Of a DNA stretch of 64,000 nucleotides, positions 46,601 through 49,600 are shown piece by piece. This stretch comes from Escherichia coli (GTDB lineage Bacteria > Pseudomonadota > Gammaproteobacteria > Enterobacterales > Enterobacteriaceae), in NCBI RefSeq assembly GCF_044324875.1, contig NZ_CP172185.1; one strand, given 5' to 3'. Numbering within the stretch: position 1 is the first letter of the stretch; every line of letters starts with the position of its first letter. Position numbers: made by a program.

Positions 46601-49600
46601 TGAAACAGTATGCGTGCGATGCGCTGTTCAGCATGAAGACCGTCAGCGGTGAGGAGGGGTATATTTATTGCCTCGCGGAACACCAGAGTACGGAAAACGC
46701 GTTTATGGCGTTCAGGATGCTCAGATATGCGGTGGCGGCGATGCAGCGTCACTTTGAACAGCACCATGAGCTGCCGCTGGTGATCCCGCTGTTATTCTAC
46801 CACGGTGAGCGGAGCCCGTACCCGTACAGCATGAACTGGCTGGAGTGTTTCAGAAATCCGGAACTTGCTGCTAAAATCTACACCAGACCGTTCCACCTGG
46901 TGGACGTGACGGTACTGGATGACGATGAGATAATGCAACACCGCCGAATGGGGGCACTGACGCTGCTGATGAAACACAGCCGCAGCCGCGACATCATGCT
47001 GCAGATGGACAGGCTGGTTCAGCTGATACAGACTTCACTGAATGAAGAGCTGGCGAAGGCTCTGTTCCACTATCTGCTGAACGGCAGTGAACATGTGACG
47101 GTAAGGTTTTTGCAGACGCTGGCGGAGCGGCTGCCACAGCATGAGGGCAACATAATGACACTGGCTGAACAACTGAAGCAGGAAGGGGAAGTCAAGGGAT
47201 TTGAGCGCGGTATTGCCCAGGGTATGGAGCGCGGTAAGCTAGAAGGCAGAATGGAAGGCAGAATGGAAGGCCGTGCCGAAGGGCGACTCGAAGGACAACT
47301 GGAAGGCAAACTGGAAACGGCGCGTAATATGTTGGCTGAAGGAATGGGGCTTCAGACCATCATGAAAATCACGGGATTGAGTGAAGAACAGCTGAAAAAA
47401 ATCAGCCACTGAAGCATTGAGGCGTGATGTATAGCACGCCTCGTTCTGTCTGACAGTATTTTGTTTCCTGTGTATTTGGTCGTTTCAGGTCAACCTTTGT
47501 CGGGAGCCTGGCGTTGGTACCTGCTGAGGAAAGAGGGAACTGGACGCAGAGTGACAGTCTGCGAATTGCAGGAAGAGGATGCGAAAGTGTTCGCTTCTTC
47601 CATTGTGTCCCTGATTTAAATTCGGATACTCAAATCTGAAGCGGTGACTCGTATACGTGTGAGTCACCGGGACTACCGCTTGAGTGATGAAAAATAGTCG
47701 TGTTAACGCAAAGCTGAAGTGACACATCTTATTTCAGCGAATGCGTTTGACCGCCTTACTATACACTTTTGAGCATTCTCTTTTCCTGACGGAAACCACG
47801 AAGACGACAATCTTCTCGTCTATAACCTGATATACAAGGCAAAAAACCGTCAAGAGCAGGAGCAGGCGGTCCGCCAGACAGTCCATTGCATAAGGCTATC
47901 AGCTATATCCTGAAACGACCTGATGAGCTGTGCCGTTTTCTGGATGATGGCTCTGTGCCACCGGACAACAATATCTGCGAACGAGCCATCCGCCCGGTCA
48001 CGCTGGGGCGAAAGGCATGGTTATTCGCAGGCTCGCTGATGGCCGGCAAACGCGCGGCACAGATAATGAGTCTTCTGGAAACAGCAAAGCGTAATGGTCT
48101 GGAGCCACATGCCTGGCTGACGGACGTACTGACGCGCCTGCCGGAGTGGCCTGAGGACCGACTGGCTGAGCTGCTGCCTCTTGAGGGATTTACCTTCTCC
48201 GGGTGACACAACACCTGCCGTCAGGTCTTTGCACACCGGGCCATGGCCTGCTGTCGGGCGTTGAGCGCCTGACAGCGGGTTATTGAGAAAGTCAGTCACC
48301 ATGCGCCTGGCTGACAGTCAGGACCTGCACGTCAGCGCCTCCCTTACCCTGGTCAGGACTTCACTGCCTGCCACAAACTCCCGTGTCAGTACTTCGCGGC
48401 CTGACGCGCTCACCCTACTCAGTCCTTCAGAGCCCGCCTCCGGTACCTGGCAAGGCAGACGCCGGGGCGCAATAAAATAAATCAACCATCGCAGGGCGGC
48501 GATCATTCGCAACAACCGCTGATGACGAGCCCAGAAACGTGTCAAGACGATTTCACCGGAACCGTTTACCCCAAGCAGAGCGGCAATAGATCCGCCTGGT
48601 ACTGTGAAGGATGCATCGCGCAGTGCTTTCTGCCCGTTTCGCCAGGTGACAGTAACGCCATTAACGACAATACCCGCAGATTGCATCATTACTTCTCCCT
48701 TTTCCCGGCTTTAATTCCCTGCACCAGCGTACTGGTAGTAACCTTCAGAAGGTCGATATACGTAGGTACCGGGCCGTTTTCTGTGCTCAGGGAATCGACA
48801 TAGAGCACACCGCCGTAGTGTGCGCCGGTTTCACGCGCAACCTGACGCGCTGGTTTATCGGAAACCGTACTCTCACTAAATACCGCTGGGATATTATTTT
48901 TCTTCACTATATCAACCACTTTACGTACCTGCTGGGGTGTTCCTTGTTGATCGGCATTTATCGGCCACAGATAAAGCTCTTTTAGCCCCAAATCGCGTGC
49001 GAGATAAGAAAAAGCCCCTTCACTGGTGACCATCCATCTTTTATTCTCAGGGAGTTCAGCAATCTGCTTACGCAGGGGGGCAAGGGTTTGGGTAATCTTG
49101 GCTTTATAAGTATCGGCATTACGTTGGTATGTTTTTGCATTTGCCGGATCGTATTTTATCAACGCATCGCGAATATTATCGACGTAAATCAAAGCATTAT
49201 CTGGCGACATCCAGGCATGAGGGTTAGGTTTTCCCTCGTAGGGGCCTTCGGTGATCCCTACTGGCGTCACACCCGAAGAGACAATCACTTCTGGAACACC
49301 ACTGAGATGCTGGTAAAAGCGCTGGAACCACAATTCCAGATTCATACCGTTGGCGAGAATCAGTTGTGCCCCCTGCGCACGTTTAATATCGCCAGGGGTA
49401 GGCTGATACTCATGAATTTCTGCACCGGGCCTGGTTATGGATGAGACTTCTGCAGCATCTCCAGCCACGTTTTTGGCCATATCTGCGATGATGGTAAATG
49501 TTGTAATGACCTTGAATTTTTCAGTTGCACTCGCCTGAAATGCTATCGAGCAGGTGAGGGCGAGGCACCCCAGGAGCATGGTTACTTTTTTTATTGAGTG

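Follow-up and report, generated by a model that had tools for sequence, protein, structure and literature searches.

The sitABCD operon encodes a cluster A-I Mn2+/Fe2+ ABC importer of E. coli (APEC/ExPEC), Shigella and Salmonella, for which a role in Mn/Fe transport in APEC has been described (PMC2626276 and references therein). In the stretch of Escherichia coli DNA analyzed here (64 kb, hereafter the window), the same sitA with the same MntR/Fur promoter is present, while only 134 nt of sitB are kept, sitC and sitD are missing and an IS66-family sequence lies where sitB breaks off. Two questions arise from this organization, namely how the operon came to be joined to the IS66-family sequence, and whether the part that is left can still do anything. 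We consider it very probable that the locus is a decayed, probably redundant copy of sitABCD in an IS-riddled chromosomal island, with a joint that was made by short homology and not by IS66 transposition. It is an ordinary feature, already annotated, that goes back to IS-associated decay in a mosaic island, and the sole refinement added by this analysis is the reading of the joint as a short-homology joint with an older IS66 stump instead of an insertion.

The sitA gene and its control region

The proximal part of the operon comprises the following features.
48689-49603, minus strand: sitA, an intact open reading frame of 304 aa encoding the periplasmic Mn/Fe substrate-binding protein.
49636-49657, minus strand: MntR-type palindrome AAACATAGC-N4-GCTATGTTT (full site AAACATAGCCGTTGCTATGTTT), without mismatches.
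49680-49698, minus strand: predicted Fur box ACTAATGATAATCATTTGC, agreeing with the consensus GATAATGATAATCATTATC at 15 of 19 positions.

The window thus encodes a full-length periplasmic substrate-binding SitA. The 304-aa product matches Mn/Fe substrate-binding protein families in profile comparison and is 98.4% identical, over residues 1-304, to SitA of an intact E. coli operon. An identical protein (WP_112047416.1) is labelled SitA in three RefSeq genomes. The SitA of the window and WP_000555617.1, the protein also encoded by the intact operon of strain LH50-c, differ at five of 304 residues.

Both predicted operators lie in the sitA promoter. With up to three mismatches allowed, the window contains no match other than the MntR-type palindrome, against 0.04 expected, and the predicted Fur box is the top-scoring match in the window when both strands are scanned. 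For the scoring we used what we take to be the MntR and Fur consensus sequences. Operator sequences of sitABCD for MntR and Fur have reportedly been published by Ikeda in 2005 and by Sabri in 2008. The predicted palindrome and Fur box occur with the same sequence in the intact operon of AR_0085, and no base of the 187 bp upstream of sitA differs from the promoter of that operon. A simple sigma-70 scan called no promoter upstream of sitA, and the integrity of the promoter therefore rests on its identity to intact operons. The 187-bp identity to AR_0085 suggests that the control region is probably as functional as in working sit operons. The preliminary description of this locus, which had reported an intact sitA with an MntR-box and Fur-box-like operators, is borne out for gene and operators alike.

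The sitB remnant and the missing permease genes

Downstream of sitA, two overlapping features can be delimited.
48556-48689, minus strand: sitB remnant, the first 134 nt of the gene (residues 1-45), with the break inside the Walker A motif (GVNGSG/KST, the slash marking the break).
48318-48689, minus strand: read-through open reading frame of 123 aa, in which the 45 residues of SitB are continued by 78 antisense IS66 codons.

The start codon of sitB at 48689 overlaps the sitA stop codon. Alignment to an intact sitB stops at 48556, corresponding to nt 134 of 828 and to the second base of codon 45, in agreement with the earlier observation that sitB ends after ...GVNGSG. The remnant protein reads ...LLGVNGSG/E where intact SitB reads GVNGSGKST, so that the break falls within Walker A, ahead of the lysine. 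The NCBIfam model PRK15056 (Mn/Fe ABC ATPase) is matched over model positions 1-50 of 274 only, at 72 bits against a cutoff of 393, and the remnant does not provide a SitB with complete Walker A, signature and Walker B motifs. The read-through frame opens MMQSAGIVVNGVTVTWRNGQKALRDASFTVPGGSIAALLGVNGSG and reaches its stop at 48318. Its residues 1-50 alone match any family, and the 123-aa product is expected to have no function.

Searches with SitB, SitC and SitD (tblastn) and with sitBCD (blastn) returned nothing else in the 64-kb window, from which both downstream permease genes, sitC and sitD, are absent, as had been claimed. We also considered whether part of an iron ABC transporter permease gene at ~9533-9991 is a displaced piece of sitC or sitD, and ruled this out as it shows no similarity to them. 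This fragment adjoins a PhoX-family gene, and the annotation of LH50-c lists it as frameshifted and partial.

With an intact SitA and neither ATPase nor permeases encoded in the window, the locus is predicted to specify the binding protein but not a transporter, and in this the preliminary description appears to be right. Its word ‘decapitated’, in contrast, is a misnomer since it is the head of the operon that is kept and the 3' genes that are gone. In the proposed mode of expression, Mn/Fe limitation would cause Fur and MntR to leave the promoter, and the resulting transcript would give rise to exported SitA and to a nonsense 123-aa fusion of SitB' and antisense IS sequence, lacking everything from the Walker A lysine onward. 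Since no permease or ATPase would be made, the locus would transport nothing by itself and, unlike sitABCD, would not allow the assembly of a transporter from its own products.

The IS66-family stump and its joint with sitB

On the far side of the break, three features are relevant to the origin of the joint.
47734-47841, minus strand: fragment of a RelE/StbE toxin gene, forming the left border of the stump; its counterpart at a sibling locus (L001, 8335-8442) is 100% identical and is a pseudogene according to PGAP.
47852-48562, plus strand: IS66-family 3' stump of 711 bp, comprising the final ~110 tnpC codons, a further ~350 bp of 3' sequence and the right inverted repeat.
48556-48562, no strand assigned: junction overlap CCGGAAC of 7 bp, assignable to the IS66 end or to sitB.

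The reading frame in the stump (47886-48206) matches positions 304-387 of the 387 positions of the IS66 transposase NCBIfam model (E-value 1.5e-33). The interval 47886-48689, to which the preliminary description had assigned the break, extends from the start of this tnpC fragment to the sitB start codon. The right inverted repeat of the stump lacks its terminal 5 bp (ATTAC), and tnpA, tnpB, the 5' part of tnpC and the left end are missing altogether, which leaves about the 3' quarter of an element. The stump is neither a complete IS66 element with tnpA, tnpB and a full-length tnpC, nor is it bounded by two inverted repeats (tip GTAA...) with an 8-bp target duplication.

The intact tip of this IS type was reconstructed by comparison. 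Full-length tnpA-tnpB-tnpC relatives of 2.77 kb share 78-79% identity with the stump at their 3' end, the homology extending from 47852 to ~48561. Two independent insertions, in plasmid pRK1 of E. coli W and in SCU-308, are flanked by 8-bp target duplications that fix the ends of these relatives, with the left tip reading GTAATGTTCCGG... and the right tip ...CCGGAATATTAC. Compared with the pRK1/SCU-308 element, the stump shows 78% identity over the last ~710 bp and shares the inverted-repeat pattern GTAAT(G/A)TTCCGG, whereas of the 2.77 kb and the 8-bp target duplication of that element the window holds the 3' quarter alone, minus the last 5 bp. A 21-nt pattern scan of the genome contigs gave no match to a full-length copy of the exact stump IS type, and the E. 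coli genomes and PLSDB plasmids searched contain only relatives of ~78-84% identity. Because no full-length copy was found, the tip is deduced from one other stump copy and from the relatives.

This other copy is found at a second locus in both AR_0085 and LH50-c, where the same stump has the same left context (Rpn-RelE'). The LH50-c copy terminates in ...GATTTCACCGGAACATTAC, which corresponds exactly to the left tip GTAATGTTCCGG of the relatives in reverse complement, and the tip in AR_0085 carries one SNP (ATGAC). At this second locus (L005, 5712-5816; L008, 9078-9177), the stump is joined to the 3'-terminal 33 codons of another ABC ATPase gene. An intact version of that gene occurs in none of the 5426 complete E. 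coli genomes, and all ten matches carry the same junction.

The heptanucleotide CCGGAAC is common to the IS end and intact sitB, where the coding strand reads …GGGGTAAACGGTTCCGGAAAATCG…, and the IS tip ...CACCGGAAC-ATTAC is severed inside this overlap. The joint in the window reads ...GATTTCACCGGAAC/CGTTTACCCC (also written ...GATTTCACCGGAAC/CGTTTACCCCAAGCAG); the ATTAC that is missing here is kept by the same stump at the second locus of LH50-c. A joint made by transposition is expected to retain the full tip, yet the sequence ends 5 bp short of it and within the 7-bp overlap, which argues against transposition. Furthermore, the left break against the RelE fragment and the Rpn neighbour are identical at both stump loci, so that the stump predates its joint with sitB. 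The joint was most likely made by illegitimate recombination or deletion through the short homology CCGGAAC, judging from the junction sequences. A pre-existing IS66 stump would then have recombined with sitB via these 7 bp without any transposition of IS66 into sitB, and the full-length tip expected under this reading is ...AACATTAC. The earlier statement that an IS66-family terminus begins at the sitB break is thus accurate to within 5 bp; the implied insertion joint is not what we find, as the terminus belongs to a 711-bp stump.

The same data bear on the possibility that an IS66-family element transposed directly into the Walker A region of sitB, with later deletions removing the 3' part of sitB, sitC, sitD and most of the IS. 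Here, a full-length right tip ...AACCGTTTAC (...CACCGGAACCGTTTAC) is expected. The sequence abutting sitB does lie within 5 bp of an IS66-family right end, and IS66-family elements are abundant in the island, but the terminal ATTAC is missing at the joint and kept by the same stump elsewhere, the position of the joint inside a 7-bp overlap is typical of short-homology recombination, and the shared left break places the truncation of the element before the joint with sitB. We therefore regard direct insertion as improbable. An assembly chimera at the junction of stump and sitB' is more doubtful by far and hardly deserves credence: although the region is rich in repeats and the right-hand continuation (from sitA to a PTS cluster, ~49865-49930) is found in no complete E. 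coli genome, this junction itself recurs at 99-100% identity in nine independently finished chromosomes.

How the short-homology joint may have come about is suggested by AR_0085, in which the stump and an intact sitDCBA are 179 kb apart, in an order and orientation that fit a deletion between the two CCGGAAC copies. From this arrangement we infer a simple deletion as the possible route. Both junctions (stump-sitB' and stump-ABC-ATPase') are, however, present in LH50-c, strain 135, CM2 and TUM9803, and their occurrence in one genome means that duplication or exchange between related islands would also be needed. Guidance of the break to its site by homology was considered and rejected, as equally high scores are obtained at other sites in the operon and, with shuffled tips, the best score is reached in 266 of 500 cases; there is hence no sign of special targeting of Walker A, and only the 7-bp overlap is meaningful. 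Weaker still than the gene-dosage reading of sitA considered below is the idea that a partial resemblance between Walker A DNA and the IS66 tip might make ABC ATPase genes recurrent partners of the stump.

Relatives, redundancy and genomic surroundings

The exact structure stump-sitB'-sitA is present in nine complete E. coli chromosomes at 99-100% identity, mostly from chicken isolates. In the three that were inspected, PGAP lists the sitB piece as an incomplete pseudogene: LH50-c (NLZ13_RS04750), ECCNB12-2 (CQP61_RS18825) and strain 135 (KZ312_RS13250). The left 23 kb of the window are closest to LH50-c, with 98.3% identity over 71% of the query, and both are part of an integrase-bearing island of the chromosome that carries genes for toxin-antitoxin, YfjI, UvrD-like helicase and Rpn proteins. 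Junction, SitA protein and IS66 stump are identical between the window and the nine carriers. The difference lies beyond sitA, which in those carriers is followed by tnp'-DoxX-dolP-yebF, whereas in the window an IS66 inverted-repeat remnant links it to a PTS/kinase/aldolase cluster.

With sitD-sitC-sitB of an intact operon as query, matches were obtained in 2346 of 5426 complete genomes, at 1650 chromosomal and 1017 plasmid places. Among the matches listed, a second, full-length chromosomal sitBCD is found in LH50-c, ECCNB12-2, strain 135, CM2, TUM9803 and HCM-27C-1. A second sitBCD is thus present in at least six of the nine chromosomes with the truncated locus, the other three not being among the best 60 rows. 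The second copy of LH50-c was confirmed gene by gene as an intact sitABCD next to iucD-iutA. The GPEC1040 chromosome has one sitA-bearing place only, and no plasmid-borne sit operon is present in the first 100 kb of pLH50-c-A or the first 50 kb of pCM2-NDM. A complete sitBCD elsewhere in the genome had been named beforehand as the finding that would turn the locus into a redundant remnant. For at least six of the nine relatives with the same junction, LH50-c among them, such a copy exists, while the genome under study itself was viewed over the 64 kb of the window only. Given the intact second operon in most close relatives, the locus is most likely a redundant, decayed copy that carries no weight for the phenotype, as far as this comparison with relatives can tell.

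A second SitBCD, where present, also offers a partner to which the SitA of the window could plausibly dock, and in strains with an intact sitABCD the extra SitA could at most add to the dosage of the binding protein. It has to be considered, then, whether selection keeps the orphan sitA as a working gene, regulated by Fur and MntR, that feeds a SitBCD elsewhere or buffers periplasmic metal. The undamaged sitA frame and promoter, identical in the window and three inspected siblings, the second SitBCD available for docking in the siblings and the mere five residues that separate this SitA from that of an intact operon would agree with it. The identity of the copies, however, shows recent common descent and leaves no variation by which constraint could be tested, and the surroundings are decaying, with sitB truncated and an IS stump on either side. 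Selective maintenance is accordingly unlikely in our judgement, and we give slightly less credit still to the narrower proposal that sitA is kept as a working gene supplying extra binding protein to a SitBCD elsewhere, that is, as a gene-dosage remnant.

We attach little weight to the locus as such: sitABCD is accessory and often located on plasmids, the truncated copy is already a RefSeq pseudogene and the nearest relatives possess an intact second operon. There are two practical aspects. Screens by PCR or gene presence that use sitA as a virulence marker would score this dead locus as positive. In addition, the junction …GATTTCACCGGAAC/CGTTTACCCC… marks a mainly poultry-associated island lineage and may be of use in annotation and typing.

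The sit fragment is bounded on its other side by another piece of an IS66-family element.
49788-49864, plus strand: second IS66-family end remnant, GTAAGTGTTAAG...GCGAACGCCGTATTGACGCTTA, upstream of the sitA promoter.

This remnant was identified by comparison with the ISEc23 end in AR_0085 (region L007) and with a transposase fragment in L001. From 49788 to 49935, the inverted-repeat remnant gives way to ~70 bp of AT-rich unique sequence and then to the PTS IIA/IIB/IIC-kinase-aldolase cluster, and the adjacency of the remnant on the sitA side to this cluster is seen in no complete E. coli genome. The PTS cluster of AR_0085 is found ~16 kb upstream of sitD, with ISEc23 ahead of it; the order in the window looks like a circular permutation of the AR_0085 segment. 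Further along (54276-56600), lsrK is a 3' fragment, and homology to AR_0085 ends at ~54967, where an ISEc8-type IS66-family element starts (transposase at 55005-56543, minus strand); the remaining lsr operon is absent from the window. An IS21-family element (istA/istB) occurs in three direct copies (605-3200, 29133-31700 and 62792-64000), and the 300-nt stretches compared between them show 100% identity. At 43509-46354, the gene for a UvrD-like helicase with ankyrin-like repeats at the C-terminus is divided between two overlapping open reading frames of 377 and 571 aa; the annotation of LH50-c marks the corresponding gene as frameshifted. Adjacent to the stump, the gene of an Rpn-family recombination-promoting nuclease (46423-47412) contains a short EGR(M/L)EG-type repeat tract near its C-terminus that varies in length from strain to strain, the protein being 329 aa long in the window and AR_0085 and 309 aa in ECCNB12-2 and LH50-c.
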